Shown here one piece after another: positions 5,396 to 12,503 of a stretch of 64,000 nucleotides of DNA; position 1 is the first letter of the stretch; each line of letters opens with the position of its first letter. The notes below the pieces were generated by a model that did not search any database, was not told the DNA's origin, and saw only the letters and a program-made list of their open reading frames with translations. The stretch is from an uncultured Phycisphaerales bacterium (GTDB lineage Bacteria > Planctomycetota > Phycisphaerae > Sedimentisphaerales > Anaerobacaceae), in the NCBI GenBank assembly GCA_963718665.1, contig OY970359.1, positions 992,001-1,056,000 of the forward strand, given 5' to 3'. A program made the translations under genes and the position numbers.

Positions 5396-5741
5396 ATGAA
5401 ATTGAGGTAAAGAGATCGTTCGTGCGCGCGTAGTCCGCTATCGCGCGGGTAATCGCCTGGCGAATCCACCACGTGGCGTATGTGCTGAACTTATAACCCC
5501 GCCGGTATTCGTATTTATCCACCGCCCGCATAAGCCCTGTGTTGCCCTCCTGATTGGGTTTGTGCCCCCGACTCCCTATCAGGAAGGGGCAGGATGGGTA
5601 AGGCCCTATAAATATGGGCTAAATGACACAGAAATCAGACCTAAGACGCCAGACGCCAGAAACAAGAGGCAGAGCCACAGGATACAAGGGGGTACATAAG
5701 GCGGATTTTTTATTTTTTTTTGTTTGATTTGGGGTGGGTTG

Positions 5742-5750
5742 TGGTATAAT
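5742..5750 (+). promoter_or_regulatory. Extended -10 promoter of the cold-shock gene, giving a ~100-nt 5' UTR
   Basis: TGGTATAAT (TGn-TATAAT) about 110 nt upstream of the csp start; long leaders are typical of cspA-family genes. Confidence 0.5.
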
Positions 5751-5860
5751 ACTAACTTTACAGGGAGGATATCCCAGCGTCCCTCAGGATTATCCTCAAA
5801 TTTAAGAACAGTGAGGGGCAAAATTTTAGTTTGTGGTCCGCAAGGGCCAAAGGAGTTACA

Positions 5861-6064
5861 GTGAGTACAGGCAAAGTAAAGTGGTTTAACGGCAAAAAAG
5901 GGTTTGGATTCATTATCCCCGATGATGGCGGCGAAGAGCTGTTTGTTCATCATTCGGAGATCAAGATGAGCGGCTATGCCGACCTTAAAGAAGGTCAGGC
6001 GGTGCAGTTTGATATCGGACAGGGCAAAAAAGGCCCCTGTGCGGTCAACGTAGTGCCTCAATAA
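5861..6064 (+). CDS. csp: Cold-shock protein (CspA family)
   Basis: [15 protein letters not shown] (RNP1) and LFVHHS (RNP2); GTG start at 5861 preceded by AGGAG. Confidence 0.95.
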
Positions 6065-6087
6065 TTAACCGAAAATTAAACCGGAAT

Positions 6088-6124
6088 AAAGGCCTCGTCC
6101 GAAAAGACGGGGCCTTTTTCTTTT
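6088..6124 (+). terminator. Rho-independent terminator (possibly bidirectional) between csp and the island
   Basis: Stem AAAGGCCTCGTC / GACGGGGCCTTT followed by TTCTTTT. Confidence 0.8.
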
Positions 6125-6139
6125 AATTGGAAAGGCTGA

Positions 6140-7195
6140 TTATATCTTTTTGGGGAGATGAAAAGCTGCGATTATTCCAGCAGCTATTGATGCGAGGAGA
6201 GCAAATGTCGTAATTATAAATTTCGCCTTATCGGGTAATTGTGAATTTGATAGTGTCGTTATTGCCTGAGGAGCCGCCAATAATACTCCGATAAGGAGTC
6301 CAATAAATAAATTACGTACCCACATGCCAGATATTATTAATCGGACATCAAAGTCAAACTTTCCAATTTTATCACTGGATAGGTCGGAACCCCTAAAAAT
6401 GGATAACGCAGCATCCTCAGAAGTTGTCGTAGGAGCAGTCTGAATACGAACAAGTTTAACATCGTATCTTGAATTTACTTCCAATGTTGAATTGCTTGTT
6501 ATTGTAATTGAAGACGTTTCTGTCTGTAATCGAAAAAAAGCGTTACTTTTACCTTCAGAAGGGTGAAAATGATATAGTTCCATCTCATATGTCCTTGCTG
6601 GTTTTAATTTAAATGCTCCATATTCAAGCAAGACATTTTCCTCAGTGCATATGTCTCTAATTCCTTTAAAGATATAAAAGCATTTTTCGGCAACAAAGTC
6701 TGGCCTTTGGGCAACTTGCGTTACAATGCTCTCCCAAGTGGCAAGTTCCTTAGAAGATATAAGTGGAAATGGTTTATTTTCATCAATCTCAAAACAATAA
6801 CGACCGACAGGACGACCATCTTGTCCCCATGTTGGCACATCGTTGCTTGTGAACGTTCTTATTTCATTAGTAAAAGGTTCTAAATTTTCAGCATAAGCAA
6901 ATTCTTGTAGGCAAAGCCCCAATGTAACGGTGGTGCCGTGTATTTTTGCATCACTTATTAAAGCGAATCGACATGGTATGAGATCGGGCGTCTTACTCTT
7001 ATCATGCTGATCAATATAAGAAATCAATGTTCTACTGCCTTCACATGTCCCATTTCTGATTTTATCATGGACTTGGGGGGCAACCCATTTGAGATTATAT
7101 CGGAATTGGAGCCGCGATCCTTCTGGCATTGCCAAAGCAAGGATAATATCTTGTCTATATCTCTCTCTTGCACCTGACGAAAGACAAATGAACAT
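6140..7195 (-). CDS. Hypothetical protein (~351 aa) with two C-terminal transmembrane helices; last gene of the island
   Basis: ATG at 7195 preceded by AAGGAG (the ORF-track start at 7390 overlaps the upstream gene). Hydrophobic segments NLFIGLLIGVLLAAPQAI and FIITTFALLASIAAGIIAAF. Confidence 0.8.
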   Translation of the reverse strand: MFICLSSGARERYRQDIILALAMPEGSRLQFRYNLKWVAPQVHDKIRNGTCEGSRTLISYIDQHDKSKTPDLIPCRFALISDAKIHGTTVTLGLCLQEFAYAENLEPFTNEIRTFTSNDVPTWGQDGRPVGRYCFEIDENKPFPLISSKELATWESIVTQVAQRPDFVAEKCFYIFKGIRDICTEENVLLEYGAFKLKPARTYEMELYHFHPSEGKSNAFFRLQTETSSITITSNSTLEVNSRYDVKLVRIQTAPTTTSEDAALSIFRGSDLSSDKIGKFDFDVRLIISGMWVRNLFIGLLIGVLLAAPQAITTLSNSQLPDKAKFIITTFALLASIAAGIIAAFHLPKKI

Positions 7196-7244
7196 AAATA
7201 ACTCCTTTCTTTCGAGCCTTAACAATAAATAGCTGAATAATATT

Positions 7245-8351
7245 TTATAAAATGGAAAGTTGCCCAACCGAATCGAGAACCTCTCGGAATTTCTTAGTTG
7301 AGCCAAAGTCGATAGTCCATGTTGCCTTGCAACCTTCAGAATATTTCTCAGGATTATATTTTTTAGGTAATGCAAGGTAAGCTGTAACATCGGGCCTTAC
7401 ATAACAAAAAATGCATACACCCAATGATTGCATTTTAGAGCCCAAAGCAGAAATATATATTTGGAAATCAAGATTCCTATCTTTATATATTTGGTCTAAC
7501 ACTTTAATCGTTTCTTTATAATCGAAAGTACATACTTCCCTTGAAATGGTTCTTTCATCTATTTTATTAATTATGCGTAATATTGCCTTACGTTTTTCTT
7601 TATCTACTTTGTTCATATGCGGATCGCCAATTATCCAAATAATTTTCCCAGGTTTCCTTAAAATAGTTTCATCTATGTGTGTTATGATCGCTTTTGTTCT
7701 TTCCGGTTTGAAAGTAGTGAAGGCAATTACAAAAGGGGGATTTTCTCGAGTGCTACCGGGGTATTCAGGGCTTGGAATGACTTTGCCTACTCCTATAGAT
7801 ATTCCGAGTCCTTCTTCTGTTGTCCATTTTTCTGGTTCAGCATCGAATTCATCATTCGTGGGATGATAAATTGCTGCTTCCGAATATACAATCTTTAAAT
7901 CAATATCGTAATCAATTAAAGTTCGAATCACTGAAAGAATTAGCTTTGAAGAAAACACGCTAATGTCTAATAACACTTTAAATTCGCCATTGGACGGGCA
8001 AACAGTATTAAAAAATTCTCTAAACTGCCTTGTGAAGTCGTCGTCGTCGCAAGTAAAGGTTTTATATCTATCGGATTCTGTGAATTTCTTAATAGCACGT
8101 AATAGTCTTTGTTTGTTTGCTGCGTTATCTTCGGTGTTGGTTGAATATTCGAATACTACAGAATATTGACTATTGAACCCTTTTACTGTGGCAAGTTTTT
8201 CCGGTATGACAAGGCATCTTTCTTCAAATCCTAATGCAGAGATAAAAACATCAAATCTCTTTTCTAAAAACATCTTCTCACATTCTAAAGCTTCTATGTC
8301 TGGCAAACGGCTTAGAATATCGATAAATTCATTTTCTTTAATTCGTGCCAT
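7245..8351 (-). CDS. Hypothetical protein, probably tandem Rossmann-like (CARF-related) domains
   Basis: Two repeats of a strand-GF/TF-x-ER unit (ISALGFEERC; IAFTTFKPERT), each followed by a strand-loop-K motif (VLLDISVFSSK; IYISALGSKMQSLG). The CARF resemblance is an inference. Confidence 0.6.
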   Translation of the reverse strand: MARIKENEFIDILSRLPDIEALECEKMFLEKRFDVFISALGFEERCLVIPEKLATVKGFNSQYSVVFEYSTNTEDNAANKQRLLRAIKKFTESDRYKTFTCDDDDFTRQFREFFNTVCPSNGEFKVLLDISVFSSKLILSVIRTLIDYDIDLKIVYSEAAIYHPTNDEFDAEPEKWTTEEGLGISIGVGKVIPSPEYPGSTRENPPFVIAFTTFKPERTKAIITHIDETILRKPGKIIWIIGDPHMNKVDKEKRKAILRIINKIDERTISREVCTFDYKETIKVLDQIYKDRNLDFQIYISALGSKMQSLGVCIFCYVRPDVTAYLALPKKYNPEKYSEGCKATWTIDFGSTKKFREVLDSVGQLSIL

Positions 8352-8362
8352 CGATTGTATCC

Positions 8363-10891
8363 TTATGTATCAAATAAAGATGATTGGTCTGGCTCTTTAT
8401 ACCTATCATATTCTTGCTGACATATTTCTTCTGGATTTGTTAAAAACTGCTTTAATTCACTCGTGTCCCACTTAAAGGCCCATGATTTTTTTAATCCGGC
8501 TCCAAATACTGGGCAATATATTCTTCTCAGTTGCCATCTCCAAGTTGGTCCAAAGGTCATGCGGCCCCTGCTTGGTTCCATCTCAATGAAAATTGACCGC
8601 CTTACAAGCTCCTTCATTAATTCTTGCTGTTCCTGGGCCCAATCTTCTCCGGATTGTCCTGGTATTTGATCGACTTCAATCCTTGTAGTTTCGAGCAAAC
8701 GACCATCATTCATTCTATTAGCTTCAACTAATAGTTTACGACATAAAGTGCCAAAATTAAGAATTATTTTATACATCTCGGTTCCACAGGGATGATAACT
8801 CTTAATTAGTTCAAAGAAACTTCTTGAGACGCTTTGTATTGAGCTATGTTGGGTATGTTTAAGTACACCATTCGTTGTTTCTTTTACAACGCCTCCCTCT
8901 TCAAATATACGGCGATATATTTCTAACAAAGCAGAGACATCTCCAGAGCAAATCTCGGCGATTGTCTCCAGTCCATGATATTGGTCTTTTCGTTTTTTAC
9001 CTTCTTTTAATGCTTCGCCAAGAGAGCTTTCTGAGTATTCGCTATGACCTATTATATCTTCAGCTTTTCCGGAATATAAAGCCAAATTCAGCCTATGATT
9101 TAACAAATCTGTGGCAAATTTTATGAGATCCTTCAAACGCCCTTTATCACTAAGATTTATGTAATATTGACCACAATCAACCTCTCTAAATTCCCTCGTA
9201 ACATCAGCAGTGGATAGTGTTTCGCCACTGAATTCCAGTACACGTTCCGCTCCATATTTCTCAGCGGATAATTTAAATACGTGATTGGCATTTCTAAACC
9301 AGATAATTGGATTTAATATTGTTTGTATGGGCAATGAAATCCGATGGATCGAAAAATCATCTAACAAGAAGACTATTTTTCTTTGTTTACAATAATCGAG
9401 ACTATTATTTAAAAGACCTGTCAAATCATTAAGAAAAGATTCTGGAAGAGTATAAGGAAGATTATATCCTCTCAAAAACTGATCATAGCAAGTATTCATT
9501 TCCATTTCAACAATTTCATGAAGATGTTCCAACGGCGTTACACCTTGCAATCGAAGCTTTTCCTCCGCTCTTAAATCCAATCTACTGGTTACGAAATCAA
9601 ATATCTCTTTTTCTTGAGTTTCCCCTAAACCGAACAATGTTTCTTTGTCTTTTCTTTGTGCAATAAGTAACAAAGAGTGAATTACTTCACGTGTAAGTAA
9701 TAGATTAAAATAGTGTATTATCTCTTTTTGAAACCTTTTGGCAATTACTTCTGATGTTAGGCAACCAAATCGATTGCTAAAATCCGCGCTACAGGAGATA
9801 TAAAAAGCAACGATGACGGAGTTTTTTATTTCTTCTTGGGATTTATATAGAATGGCCTTTAAGCTCATTCTTCTAAAAACCGTCGATTTACCGCATCCTC
9901 TTGGACCAGTTAATAAAACAGGATTAGGGCTTGTAACCTCTTTCACCCATGGACAGGAATCTGCGAAAAGCCTTACCAACAATTGATCACTTGCAATATG
10001 TTCAGCAGAAATATAATCGAAAGGATCATCAAGTTTTAATTCGATTTCTTTGTAAGGATGTAGCACTCTTGTATAAGCATTTTCAAACTGCCTTCGTACT
10101 TTAGAAGGTTCAAAAAGAGCCGCTTGTCTATCTTCATCTAACATCGAATTAATCAAAGGTTTAATTGTATCTCTAAACCTTCGCTCTTTAAATGATAACA
10201 TTTTTCTTTTTTTGTATGAATCAAAGAGCATTGCGTTATACAAGGCAATAAGATGATGACAAAACCATCCATGATCGTCTTTGTCTTTTGTTAGAGTGGC
10301 ATCATAAGATTTAACCGAACCAGTATCTATAATCTTTACTCCCAGTTCTTCGTGAAGCATAGGCGCAATCATTACATTGCCAAGGTGCAAATCGTCGTGA
10401 CGCAATTTCGCACGATCTCTTAAAATGGTGAGGGCGTCACACATCTGCTTGACATAATTACGTATGAAAGACGATGTAATTTCATTATTATGGATGTATG
10501 TCTTTAACGTTTGCCCCTCAACCCATTCTTCGATAAAGCATACGCATTTAATCTTTTTGGATTTCTTGCGCTTTCTGTGTAGTGGAAATTCAATAATATC
10601 TGCGTCATAGAAATGTGCAAAACATGAATATTTACTCAATGAGGCCGCCATTCTTGCCTCGTCAAGGTAAGACCGATGCAGGTAATCTTTATATGTGGCA
10701 AGTTTAATAGCTACATCTCTTCCATATTCATCTGTTCCTTTCCAAACAACAGATTTGACTCCATCCGTAGGTAAACATTCTTTTGGAAAATATTTTGATC
10801 CACGAACAGGTATCTCATCCCCAATAACTTCTCTTGAAGATAACAATTGTTTGTCCTTTTGGGACATTTCTATTTTAACTTTTTTGGCCAT
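8363..10891 (-). CDS. Ser/Thr protein kinase fused to a P-loop NTPase (STAND/ORC-CDC6-like)
   Basis: Kinase: VVWKG..VAIK, alphaC Glu (DEARM), RHDDLHLGN catalytic loop, IIDTG. NTPase: Walker A GPRGCGKS, Walker B IVFLLDD, downstream CSGDV helix. Confidence 0.85.
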   Translation of the reverse strand: MAKKVKIEMSQKDKQLLSSREVIGDEIPVRGSKYFPKECLPTDGVKSVVWKGTDEYGRDVAIKLATYKDYLHRSYLDEARMAASLSKYSCFAHFYDADIIEFPLHRKRKKSKKIKCVCFIEEWVEGQTLKTYIHNNEITSSFIRNYVKQMCDALTILRDRAKLRHDDLHLGNVMIAPMLHEELGVKIIDTGSVKSYDATLTKDKDDHGWFCHHLIALYNAMLFDSYKKRKMLSFKERRFRDTIKPLINSMLDEDRQAALFEPSKVRRQFENAYTRVLHPYKEIELKLDDPFDYISAEHIASDQLLVRLFADSCPWVKEVTSPNPVLLTGPRGCGKSTVFRRMSLKAILYKSQEEIKNSVIVAFYISCSADFSNRFGCLTSEVIAKRFQKEIIHYFNLLLTREVIHSLLLIAQRKDKETLFGLGETQEKEIFDFVTSRLDLRAEEKLRLQGVTPLEHLHEIVEMEMNTCYDQFLRGYNLPYTLPESFLNDLTGLLNNSLDYCKQRKIVFLLDDFSIHRISLPIQTILNPIIWFRNANHVFKLSAEKYGAERVLEFSGETLSTADVTREFREVDCGQYYINLSDKGRLKDLIKFATDLLNHRLNLALYSGKAEDIIGHSEYSESSLGEALKEGKKRKDQYHGLETIAEICSGDVSALLEIYRRIFEEGGVVKETTNGVLKHTQHSSIQSVSRSFFELIKSYHPCGTEMYKIILNFGTLCRKLLVEANRMNDGRLLETTRIEVDQIPGQSGEDWAQEQQELMKELVRRSIFIEMEPSRGRMTFGPTWRWQLRRIYCPVFGAGLKKSWAFKWDTSELKQFLTNPEEICQQEYDRYKEPDQSSLFDT

Positions 10892-12050
10892 GATATTTAG
10901 ATGCTTCGTTTATTGTTCTTTTCGCTTTTTTGAAAAATTTTGTCGATGAGAAATTATTCCAATCCGGCATTCTATCTGCTCTTGGTAAGGCCCATCTTTT
11001 TTTCCAATAGGTTAATAATGCTTCGAAAGGACGATTAAACGAGATGGCTCGTTTTCCATTATGAATAACATTTCTTAAATTTTTAGCCAGAGGAAACAAA
11101 TAAAATTCCCTTTTGATGCCATGGCACTCAAATGAGGGTAATCCTAATCGGCTGAGGCCAAGACTAAGAAGTCTGAGCTTTCTTGACGGGCCATTGCCAT
11201 AACCTCTGGCAATATCAATCCCTTCGCGTTCCAAAAAAATAAGAAGTTCTTCATATAATTTTTCGGGGATATGAAACGACCCCGTTCCCTGCGTATATCC
11301 CAGACAGTCAGCTACAATTTCGCCATTATACTTCAGGCGATTATAAAGGCTACTTTTCCCAAAAGCACTGGTTGTAGTGATAAATAAAAGTTCGGGTTTC
11401 AGCGTCTGTTTTTTAATAATTGATATATAATTGGCATATCTATTTTTGTATGCTTCTCTCACTTCATTGGCTGTTAAAGCAAGAGCGACCATTTTCCCAC
11501 CCAGAAGTTCGTTATAAGGCGGAAGCGCTCCTACTCGTTGAGCATGCATTGATTTGTTTACCCATAAATCTAATTCACTATTGGGAAGGTTAAGTGCCTT
11601 ATCCCGAACAGACATTTTTAGTATGGGACTCTGTAAAGAAATCAAACCAAATGGGCAATCGTGTTTTTTATCCCATAAGAGAAACCGCAGTTGACGTCCA
11701 TAAGGATGCTGGTATGGAATGCTCCACCAGACAAAATTCCACCAGCGAAATATAATCTCCTCAAAAGACTCTGGTTGCACTTCACGTAGTTCCAATTCAA
11801 TTTGTTCAGGGATTATATCTTTCCCATCTCTATTGTATGATCTGACCAAATTAAAGTGTTGCCGTAAGAAATTCGAGTGCAAAGCAATTTGTTCAATCTT
11901 CGCTTTCCTCTGCATCCTTCTGAGAGTGTTTTTGCTGTAACCGGCAGGTCTAAGATGTGGATTGATTTTAAAACCATAATTCTTTAACGCAGCAAGAATT
12001 TTGTTTCGTAGTTTCGCCTTACCAACAATTTTCTTTTTTAGTTCTGCCAC
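10875..12050 (-). CDS. DUF4338 / Druantia DruA-like protein
   Basis: Family-typical motifs WSIPY...GRQLRFLLWD, GLISL.SP, VGALPPYNELLGGKMVAL, ITTTSAFGKSSLYNRL, GYTQGTGSFH. Confidence 0.85.
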   Translation of the reverse strand: MAELKKKIVGKAKLRNKILAALKNYGFKINPHLRPAGYSKNTLRRMQRKAKIEQIALHSNFLRQHFNLVRSYNRDGKDIIPEQIELELREVQPESFEEIIFRWWNFVWWSIPYQHPYGRQLRFLLWDKKHDCPFGLISLQSPILKMSVRDKALNLPNSELDLWVNKSMHAQRVGALPPYNELLGGKMVALALTANEVREAYKNRYANYISIIKKQTLKPELLFITTTSAFGKSSLYNRLKYNGEIVADCLGYTQGTGSFHIPEKLYEELLIFLEREGIDIARGYGNGPSRKLRLLSLGLSRLGLPSFECHGIKREFYLFPLAKNLRNVIHNGKRAISFNRPFEALLTYWKKRWALPRADRMPDWNNFSSTKFFKKAKRTINEASKYHGQKS

Positions 12051-12160: not shown

Positions 12161-12406
12161 TTGAAAGTCGATAGTGGTTAGTCGATAGTCGTTAGTGTTT
12201 AGAAAACTGGGCCCCAGATCGTAGTCTGGGGTCTTCGCCCGCCTTCGTTGACACTATGGCGGGTAAACTGCGCTACGAGGAGAACTTTGGGGGGCTGAGG
12301 GCAGTATAAAGAGCAATACCCCCGCAGTTTTGCTTCGCAAAACTAAGCGCAGGGGTCTTCCCCCTTCGCCAAGGGCTACGGCGGGACAGGTCGCTGCGAT
12401 ACGAGA
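12161..12406. repeat. Heptamer run plus nested palindromic elements at the island boundary
   Basis: TTGAAAG-TCGATAG-TGGTTAG-TCGATAG-TCGTTAG-TGTTTAG (12161-12202); hairpins CCCCAGA/TCTGGGG, CCCGCC/GGCGGG and AGTTTTGC/GCAAAACT; two GGGGTCTTC...TGCG(C/A)TACGAG units. Confidence 0.65.
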
Positions 12407-12503
12407 AAACTACTTGTTGCGGGAGCGAATTTGTGGTATATTTTACTTTTCGAGTAACTTGTTAGTGGGGTTTCAACTCGCTTAATACGCTGTATCAGGA
12501 GAA

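Follow-up and report, generated by a model that had tools for sequence, protein, structure and literature searches.

The closest described relatives of the locus analysed here each share a part of it, and type I Druantia, which Doron et al. reportedly set out in 2018 as DruABCDE, shares the DruA protein (DUF4338). The locus lies in the window, that is, the whole stretch of 64,000 nucleotides (nt) that was analysed, from an uncultured Phycisphaerales bacterium (positions 992,001 to 1,056,000 of contig OY970359.1, assembly GCA_963718665.1). There, an AT-rich island at 6140-12050 consists of four co-oriented, tightly packed open reading frames (ORFs) on the minus strand, flanked by csp and, at the opposite end, by a DUF1573 gene; this description, already given in the initial annotation, is borne out by the ORFs, their spacing, the GC content and the domains of the flanking genes. 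The genes encode DruA (g1), a kinase-ATPase (g2), a CARF-like protein (g3) and a protein with two transmembrane helices (2-TM protein, g4). The conserved unit is made up of three genes, those for DruA, the kinase-ATPase and the CARF-like protein, and the 2-TM protein is optional. Our preferred reading, to which we give about an even chance, is a defence cassette linked to modification: DruA would mark self, the kinase-ATPase and the CARF-like protein would sense and signal, and g4 would act as an optional effector.

The first gene, g1 (10875-12050, minus strand), starts with GTG and encodes a full-length DruA of 391 amino acids (Pfam PF14236, 8.9e-65; PADLOC DruA1, 3.6e-83), the only DruA in the genome; its predicted GNAT-fold core lies at about residues 80-340, and it is the predicted self-marking modifier of the cassette. 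It overlaps by 17 nt with g2 (8363-10891, minus strand), whose product of 842 amino acids, the predicted sensor or switch, has a Hanks-type Ser/Thr kinase domain (residues ~40-280), an ORC/Cdc6-like AAA+ ATPase domain (~290-622) and a conserved C-terminal region. After a gap of 11 nt follows g3 (7245-8351, minus strand), encoding a tandem Rossmann protein of the CARF6 type (368 amino acids) that corresponds to the C-terminal part of a family of fused proteins. A further 49 nt separate it from g4 (6140-7195, minus strand), which encodes an accessory membrane protein of 351 amino acids, a candidate for an optional effector.

In type I Druantia, DruA likewise opens the operon, and the hallmark of the system is a helicase (PMC7251935). 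The same source tabulates DruA as of "unknown function" among defence genes. The largest gene of the island is that of the 842-residue kinase-ATPase, and none is helicase-sized. DruE with its MZB/DUF1998 domain (PF09369) has no match in the 2.61-Mb single-contig genome (94.6% complete), and 8 of the 14 reference genomes searched with PF09369 as a control did give a match. DruB-D are not matched by any island protein either (PADLOC, E up to 0.1), the partners of DruA being the kinase-ATPase, the CARF-like protein and the 2-TM protein. The initial annotation was thus right in setting the island apart from type I Druantia. That it is a decayed remnant of that system, left without DruB-E, would agree with the full-length match to DruA1, but the genome lacks the MZB/DUF1998 domain and the order DruA-kinase-CARF recurs with intact, tightly packed genes in dozens of loci, and we regard this explanation as hardly credible.

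A DNA modifier combined with a protein kinase and a P-loop ATPase is also the common theme of BREX type 2/Pgl and of MADS. The former contains the kinase PglW, the methylase PglX, the ATPase PglY, and PglZ; the latter, named as in PADLOC, has mad2 as methylase, mad6 as kinase and mad8 as ATPase. The kinase domain of g2 matches mad6 (6.1e-11) and its P-loop matches mad8 (1.2e-4), both weakly and at the level of domains only, and none of the four island proteins matches PglZ, PglX or BrxC in PADLOC at E values up to 0.1. Moreover, those systems have six to eight genes as against three here, and a CARF-like component is present here. BrxC-type ATPases have been described as ORC/Cdc6-like AAA+ proteins (PMC12839542). 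With the ancillary proteins of type III CRISPR-Cas the locus shares a CARF-type Rossmann sensor, and a NurA-HerA module is found in six related loci; HerA-NurA pairs have been linked to type III CRISPR loci (PMC6546367). However, there is no Csm1-type Cas10 (TIGR02578) in the genome, for which the Cmr2 model was not run, and no cyclase in the cassette.

Conserved core of the cassette

Related loci were collected by scanning metagenomes with an alignment of g2 homologues; of the 259 relatives that this returned, the best 80 loci entered the set. A single-protein scan of genome contigs added one locus only (L001), and the window itself brings the set to 82 loci, in which ORFs were called and clustered and one hidden Markov model (HMM) was built for each core family. 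The proteins of L001 are 67% (DruA), 64% (kinase-ATPase) and 58% (CARF-like) identical to those of the window, and they are followed by NurA and HerA, not by a g4 homologue.

The g3 homologue stands directly after the g2 homologue in 74 of the 82 loci, and the other eight are cut within ~600 nt of the kinase-gene match. DruA was found in 63 loci, and the 19 without it are all either short contigs or truncated at one end. In 39 of these 63 DruA is the gene immediately upstream, in the same orientation, and elsewhere it is farther upstream, inverted or downstream. HMM matches to the g4 family (T-like proteins) were obtained in 15 of the 82 loci, with varying positions and strands; NurA occurs in 6 loci and HerA in 5. 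When the count is limited to loci in which the kinase-CARF pair is flanked by no less than 1.5 kb on each side (n = 31), DruA is present in 31/31, a T-like protein in 9, NurA in 4, and neither a T-like protein nor NurA in 20. No other cluster of neighbouring proteins occurs in more than four loci. Three of the loci (L043, L044 and L045) do not differ in their kinase-ATPase sequences and share their neighbours; probably one organism was sampled three times, and they are therefore one observation.

The four-gene system proposed in the initial annotation has to be reduced to its core of DruA, kinase-ATPase and CARF-like protein, which recurs in synteny across the related loci. The place of the fourth gene is taken in some loci by a T-like protein or by NurA and HerA, and in most it is vacant. 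The idea that DruA has been recruited into an architecture different from that of Druantia is supported by its presence in all 31 related loci that have enough flanking sequence.

The kinase-ATPase and the CARF-like protein

Makarova et al. published the kinase-ATPase-CARF architecture in 2014, as a small fusion family with a Zn ribbon, a Ser/Thr/Tyr kinase, an AAA+ domain with Arg in the P-loop, a CARF domain and a winged helix-turn-helix domain (PMC4012209). Judged by their sequences, g2 and g3 are this fusion family split into two genes. The PADLOC model PDLC01925 (CARF6--CARF_STK_AAA, 1187 positions), the name of which presumably goes back to the CARF census of 2020, is matched by g2 over 118-814 (5.6e-38) and by g3 over positions 871-1179 (1.3e-14). 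The kinase, the AAA+ ATPase with its GPRGCGK motif and the CARF-like part come in the same order in the fusion family, which is one protein, whereas the island has two adjacent genes. A fused kinase-ATPase-CARF protein of 1228 amino acids is found in a congener (G006), and it matches PDLC01925 over its whole length (E = 0, 1502 bits). The N-terminal Zn ribbon of the 2014 family is not present in g2, the translation of which has a single Cys among its first 45 residues. The 2014 account, in the part available, treats a single-protein architecture and mentions no partner genes, neither DruA or methyltransferases nor add-ons.

Besides the kinase matches, g2 gave a match to the Pfam family ORC-CDC6-like (PF24389, 5.9e-44). 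In a profile search its kinase domain matched solved Hanks kinases, and it also matches the single-gene kinase defence models of PADLOC (PD-T4-6). For g3, the PADLOC model CARF6--CARF_CARF_CARF was matched at 3.1e-17; the Pfam matches to HFX_2341_N (2.2e-4) and Csa3_N (0.014) were both under the cut-off, and a sequence search of the PDB found no relatives of this protein. The kinase residues K63, E78, H165, D167, N172, D189 and G191 are invariant in 36 g2 homologues, and so are the ATPase residues G329-K335 (GPRGCGK, with Arg in the P-loop), D511 and D512, the P-loop GPRGCGKS of g2 being residues 329-336. The kinase and Walker motifs, including GxRGCGK, are also invariant in a sister group of 21-25% identity. 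Since the catalytic motifs are unchanged in both the close and the sister group, the kinase and the ATPase are probably both active.

These results correct the initial annotation in several respects. The NTPase, which had been set beside the STAND-type NTPases of abortive-infection systems, is of the ORC/Cdc6-like AAA+ type with Arg in the P-loop, and all STAND-type Pfam matches of g2 (NACHT, nSTAND) were under the cut-off. At most an isolated DruA match had been expected from PADLOC; DruA1 was indeed found, and the PDLC01925 and CARF6 models matched as well. The combination of genes had not been recognised as a named system. For the kinase-NTPase and CARF part this does not hold, given the 2014 family and PDLC01925, whereas no paper was found on the DruA-linked cassette.

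Methyltransferases in the place of DruA

The cassette is distributed sporadically. No close homologue of g2 was found in 40 relatives, two congeners carrying versions of 24-25% identity. When PDLC01925 was run against 400 other genomes from the phylum, 66 matches were obtained, of which 64 were to the kinase domain only and 2 were true, and a scan of viral contigs yielded three more distant kinase-ATPase loci. DruA is absent from all seven distant loci. In six of them (G006, G013, G201, G090, L093 and L094) a DNA methyltransferase gene lies directly upstream of the kinase-ATPase gene: one is of the C5 type (PF00145, 1.7e-63), one of the Dam/D12 type (1.7e-23) and four are of N6/N4 type. This methyltransferase in the DruA slot of the sister systems is the most informative point of the analysis and was absent from the initial annotation.

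The seventh distant locus (L092), on a contig classed as viral that ends just past the kinase-ATPase gene, has upstream of this gene a protein of 195 amino acids and a CI-type repressor that carries an S24 peptidase domain (6294-7010); versions like this one may be prophage-borne.

In a FastTree phylogeny of 69 kinase-ATPases, a branch with an SH-like support of 100% separates all 62 rows of the DruA type from the methyltransferase-linked rows. The tree was drawn with midpoint rooting and carried long-branch warnings on three sister rows, and it does not fix the direction of the exchange between DruA and methyltransferase. In Druantia, type I has DruA and type II a methylase. The C5 methyltransferase in the DruA slot of G006 (L088, 6540-7646) matches, among many MTase_II models, the PADLOC model DruM of Druantia type II (1.5e-75). 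The choice between DruA and a methylase may therefore occur both in Druantia and in the kinase-ATPase/CARF family.

Fold of DruA

A structural model of g1 was built with AlphaFold2 (AF2) from 43 sequences (pLDDT 89, pTM 0.86) and compared by VIA-align with 48,161 PDB representatives. The best match was Mom of phage Mu (8bv8_B), with a Z score of 10.1 and a root-mean-square deviation of 3.7 Å, 171 of 202 residues being aligned; the alignment covers residues 80-331 of the model. Rows 2-50 among the matches listed were all GNAT-fold acyltransferases with Z scores of 8.0-9.3. Foldseek gave weak E values (best 6.9e-3), mostly to GNAT-fold enzymes, with Mom having the top query TM-score among the matches listed. 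A sequence search of the PDB with g1 returned no relatives, and when the PDB sequences were searched with a DruA profile, Mom was not retrieved. Residues that are invariant in DruA include R119, R122, S228, S233, Y236 and H310. The core of DruA is thus predicted to adopt a GNAT fold that comes closest to Mom, a match at the level of the fold only. Mom requires its residues R111 and S124, and the protein has a helix-turn-helix-like insertion. Mom lacks the extra N- and C-terminal helical regions of DruA. DruA has the place of a modification enzyme, the one that methyltransferases have in the sister cassettes; Mom is a counter-defence enzyme of a phage, whereas DruA belongs to cassettes of the host. 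The activity of Mom is that of a Gly-tRNA-dependent DNA adenine aminoacyl-transferase (PMC13219725, in which the terms DruA, DUF4338 and Druantia do not occur). DUF4338 was earlier named a GNAT domain in passing (PMC10853773).

DruA is an obligate partner of the kinase-ATPase and the CARF-like protein, its slot is exchanged with methyltransferases, and its modelled fold comes closest to Mom. Taken together, these three points lead to the concrete hypothesis that DruA is a modifier of DNA or one that marks self. We put the chance that it marks DNA at slightly less than even.

The same fold could be explained otherwise, if DruA were a GNAT-type toxin effector, acting for example on aminoacyl-tRNA or translation and held or triggered by the kinase-ATPase and the CARF-like protein. 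A GNAT toxin of bacteria (7byy) does appear in the structural list (Z 8.4), the best match, Mom, takes charged tRNA as a co-substrate (PMC13219725), and any other obvious effector is absent from most loci. However, the match to 7byy is no better than those to dozens of ordinary acetyltransferases, DNA methyltransferases, which are not toxic, fill the slot in six of the seven sister loci, and DruA also opens type I Druantia, where the helicase is the hallmark (PMC7251935). A toxin is therefore improbable.

Genomic context

Both flanking genes of the island could be located in five congeners. In three of them (G007, locus L085; G017, L086; G020, L087) they lie 6.2-8.4 kb apart and the interval holds a type I restriction-modification (R-M) system in 3/3, the three systems being different; in the remaining two the flanking genes are not adjacent. 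Three different R-M systems in one interval mark the site between rpoD-csp and the DUF1573 gene as a variable hotspot, and its occupation by R-M systems in congeners gives independent support by location for a role of the cassette in defence. In one of these three congeners a 23S rRNA-intervening-sequence protein is encoded between hsdR and a fused hsdM-S gene.

The neighbourhood of the related loci was scanned for proteins of at least 215 amino acids within 4 kb, and the first 116 of 139 were searched. Fifteen of the 116 are of restriction or defence type: GmrSD, EcoRV with two methylases, two HsdR, a DUF1156 methylase, REC-TIR, SIR2, a Schlafen-like protein, a ResIII helicase, further methylases, and a diverged NurA with HerA. 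Fourteen belong to mobile elements (integrases, serine recombinases, transposases, relaxases, TraG/VirB4-type proteins and CagX conjugation genes), three are ThyX proteins encoded within the operon, and 40 have no Pfam family. No cas families were found among the 116. Two of the neighbours are noted here individually: a receiver domain fused to a TIR domain of the CAP12/Pycsar type (L021, 7176-7970) and a SIR2_2 protein (L064, 10568-11914), each within 4 kb of a related cassette.

The share of mobile-element genes would suit a module that has no part in immunity and serves a mobile element in signalling or maintenance (epigenetic regulation or addiction), merely travelling with defence islands. 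Three distant relatives on contigs classed as viral, one of them beside a CI-type repressor, point in the same direction. On the other hand, R-M systems occupy the same site in three congeners, the add-ons and neighbours (NurA-HerA, GmrSD, TIR, SIR2) are typical of defence, and all of the component families are known from defence contexts; besides, addiction and R-M-like defence are compatible with one another. We therefore assign little probability to a non-immune module.

The membrane protein and other add-ons

The long ORF of g4 extends over 6140-7390, and the start was assigned to M66, at 7195, because 22 of the 28 homologue clusters have lengths of 342-353 amino acids and complete N-termini begin at the aligned Met; one homologue in the alignment has 15 extra N-terminal residues before it. 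The ribosome-binding signal AGGAG stands 6 nt ahead of the ATG. The protein belongs to no family in Pfam, PADLOC or NCBIfam, its homologues form 28 clusters among 5.8 billion, and the nearest clusters in the ESM Atlas are all annotated as "hypothetical protein". The AF2 model (pLDDT 92, pTM 0.83) has a predicted cytosolic alpha/beta domain at residues 1-165, an Ig-like beta-sandwich at 169-291 and a C-terminal hairpin of two transmembrane (TM) helices (292-316 and 322-344). For the sandwich, Ig-like/MSP/PapD-type domains were matched with Z scores of ~9, and Foldseek against the PDB gave only generic partial matches of the Ig-like kind. For the N-terminal domain (1-152 or 1-159) the matches were to the YTH domain of Mmi1 (Z 8.3) and to two EVE-type proteins and THYN1 (Z 7.5-7.7), a range of Z that is common for unrelated folds. 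The predicted complex of g3 and g4 scored 0.01, a value that carries no weight either way on binding.

The loci bearing a T-like protein are scattered over the FastTree phylogeny, and the group of nine rows nearest to the window includes loci with a T-like protein alone, with NurA alone, with both or with none. Such a patchwork among near relatives indicates that the add-on is exchanged quickly. Two related loci (L006, 12092-13195, and L015, 5464-6597) encode members of a family of 367-377 amino acids without a Pfam or PADLOC match, which the HMM of the g4 family hits at 2e-25 and 7e-25; as distant relatives of g4, they extend the family of membrane add-ons beyond the 28 close clusters.

These data bear on the initial proposal of an abortive-infection system, in which an NTPase-gated kinase would be the sensor, the CARF-like protein would bind a nucleotide signal or be the target of phosphorylation, and the 2-TM protein would damage the membrane and so kill or arrest the cell, with DruA as an accessory sensor or regulator that does no self-marking. 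In line with it, the motifs of the kinase and the ATPase are intact, g3 matches CARF-type models, the TM hairpin of g4 is modelled with confidence, and the T-like protein and NurA-HerA have the look of swappable effectors; single-gene kinase defence systems are moreover among the matches of the kinase domain (PD-T4-6). But 20 of the 31 complete loci have neither the T-like protein nor NurA, so that the TM protein is not a general effector. Neither does the island encode a cyclase or another signal-making enzyme, nor the genome a Csm1-type Cas10. Above all, such a system would leave unexplained why DruA is universal in the clade and is replaced by methyltransferases in the sister loci. Abortive infection of this kind is unlikely in our view, though it is the strongest of the alternatives.

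Several further genes accompany the core in a few loci. A ThyX gene (flavin-dependent thymidylate synthase family, ~6e-56) is inserted between the DruA and kinase-ATPase genes in four of them (L022, 9158-9976; L026, 6704-7522; L041, 4994-5812; L080, 1806-2750), possibly encoding a pyrimidine-modifying accessory. An ASCH protein follows the T-like protein in two loci, and YunG stands beside the T-like protein or NurA in three; the g4 family did not match these co-occurring ASCH and YunG proteins in hhalign. In one locus a GmrSD type IV restriction gene lies between NurA and HerA (L004, 14839-16623). Cytidine/dCMP deaminase-like proteins of 380-451 amino acids, which match an AID/APOBEC-type model, were found in two places: one is beside DruA in L027 (506-1861), and its cluster mate adjoins the kinase gene in L081 (253-1395), a short contig without DruA. 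Few as these cases are, the add-ons fit the theme of modified bases.

Proposed function

Returning to the modification-linked cassette, its working can be pictured as follows. DruA, a putative Mom-like enzyme with a GNAT fold, would mark the DNA of the host, as a methyltransferase would in the sister cassettes. The ORC-type, DNA-binding ATPase and its CARF-like partner might then detect unmarked or foreign nucleic acid, or a nucleotide linked to infection, and this detection would switch on the kinase. Host or phage proteins phosphorylated by it would block the infection, either directly or through add-on effectors. As to gene content, the add-on is g4 in the window, a NurA-HerA nuclease-translocase in close relatives, and nothing in most loci. 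The most specific version of this scheme, in which DruA puts a non-methyl (aminoacyl or acyl) mark on host DNA and the kinase, the ORC-like ATPase and the CARF-like protein read its absence and respond by phosphorylation, not by cutting, we hold to be possible but rather doubtful.

Several points weigh against the proposal. That the cassette is a defence system at all, which we consider probable, is concluded from its context alone, and the neighbour counts are descriptive, having no control set. Since the loci were chosen by their similarity to g2 (the best 80 of 259), the presence of DruA in 31/31 describes this clade only. The CARF-like call for g3 comes from PADLOC models (3e-17), the CARF-type matches in Pfam being under the cut-off. 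The Z score of 10.1 for Mom is barely over the 8-9.3 of generic GNAT proteins, and no match between the DruA sequence profile and Mom was obtained among the PDB sequences. The usual acylation targets of GNAT enzymes are proteins or small molecules, and a protein such as the kinase or the CARF-like protein could therefore just as well be the substrate of DruA. The slot common to DruA and the methyltransferases shows an analogous position and not the same chemistry. Finally, the 20 of 31 loci that have no add-ons hold no nuclease, and any restriction step would therefore have to be non-nucleolytic.

Were the version with a non-methyl mark true, the cassette would be an R-M-like system with new chemistry on both arms, and the first gene of type I Druantia would gain a function. 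With three genes, it would also be a compact model for the kinases and ORC-like ATPases of modification-linked immunity, BREX type 2/Pgl and MADS being larger and harder to dissect. The additions of the window itself are a rare but structurally confident membrane add-on and a hotspot that holds type I R-M systems in congeners. In the literature searched, DruA as an obligate partner, its exchange with methyltransferases and the optional add-ons are undescribed; the searches did not cover the CARF census of 2020, which may treat part of this. The papers on YprA, CoCoNuT, BREX diversity and EVE domains, in the parts available, contain nothing on a cassette of DruA, kinase and CARF.

Borders of the island

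The GC content is 0.34-0.40 in 6001-12000, as against 0.47-0.56 in the left flank and 0.48-0.55 in the right one. On one side lie csp (CSD, 3.8e-28) and a sigma-70 gene (rpoD), on the other the DUF1573 gene (1.3e-21), and the AT-rich island occupies the variable chromosomal site between them. A horizontally acquired cassette is the best-supported explanation. No convincing direct or inverted repeats or att-like sites were found flanking the island.

The initial annotation had placed a terminator at one border and a repeat cluster at the other. The terminator is a hairpin at 6088-6117 (plus strand), between the convergent csp and g4 genes, with a stem of 12 bp that includes 7 GC pairs and is followed by a T run. 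It scores as a terminator of the plus strand, that is, of csp, and may be used by the minus-strand operon as well. The repeat cluster, upstream of g1 at 12205-12424, proved to be something other than a border: it consists of two diverged, gapped copies of a ~60-nt element, with 47 of 100 aligned columns identical and a 13-nt core at 12228 and at 12352. Partial copies with 84-100% identity occur at 11 further places in the genome. A repeat so dispersed belongs to a REP-like intergenic family and is not specific to the island, and a role as an integration boundary was rejected on this ground.

A search of the island against Rfam gave only a chance match to ctRNA and a sub-threshold match to the cspA thermoregulator. 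The latter (RF01766) covers the csp leader and coding region at 5740-6119 on the plus strand with 45 bits (E 2.8e-9), under the gathering score of 78 bits, and the csp leader may thus be a diverged cold-shock switch of the 5' untranslated region.

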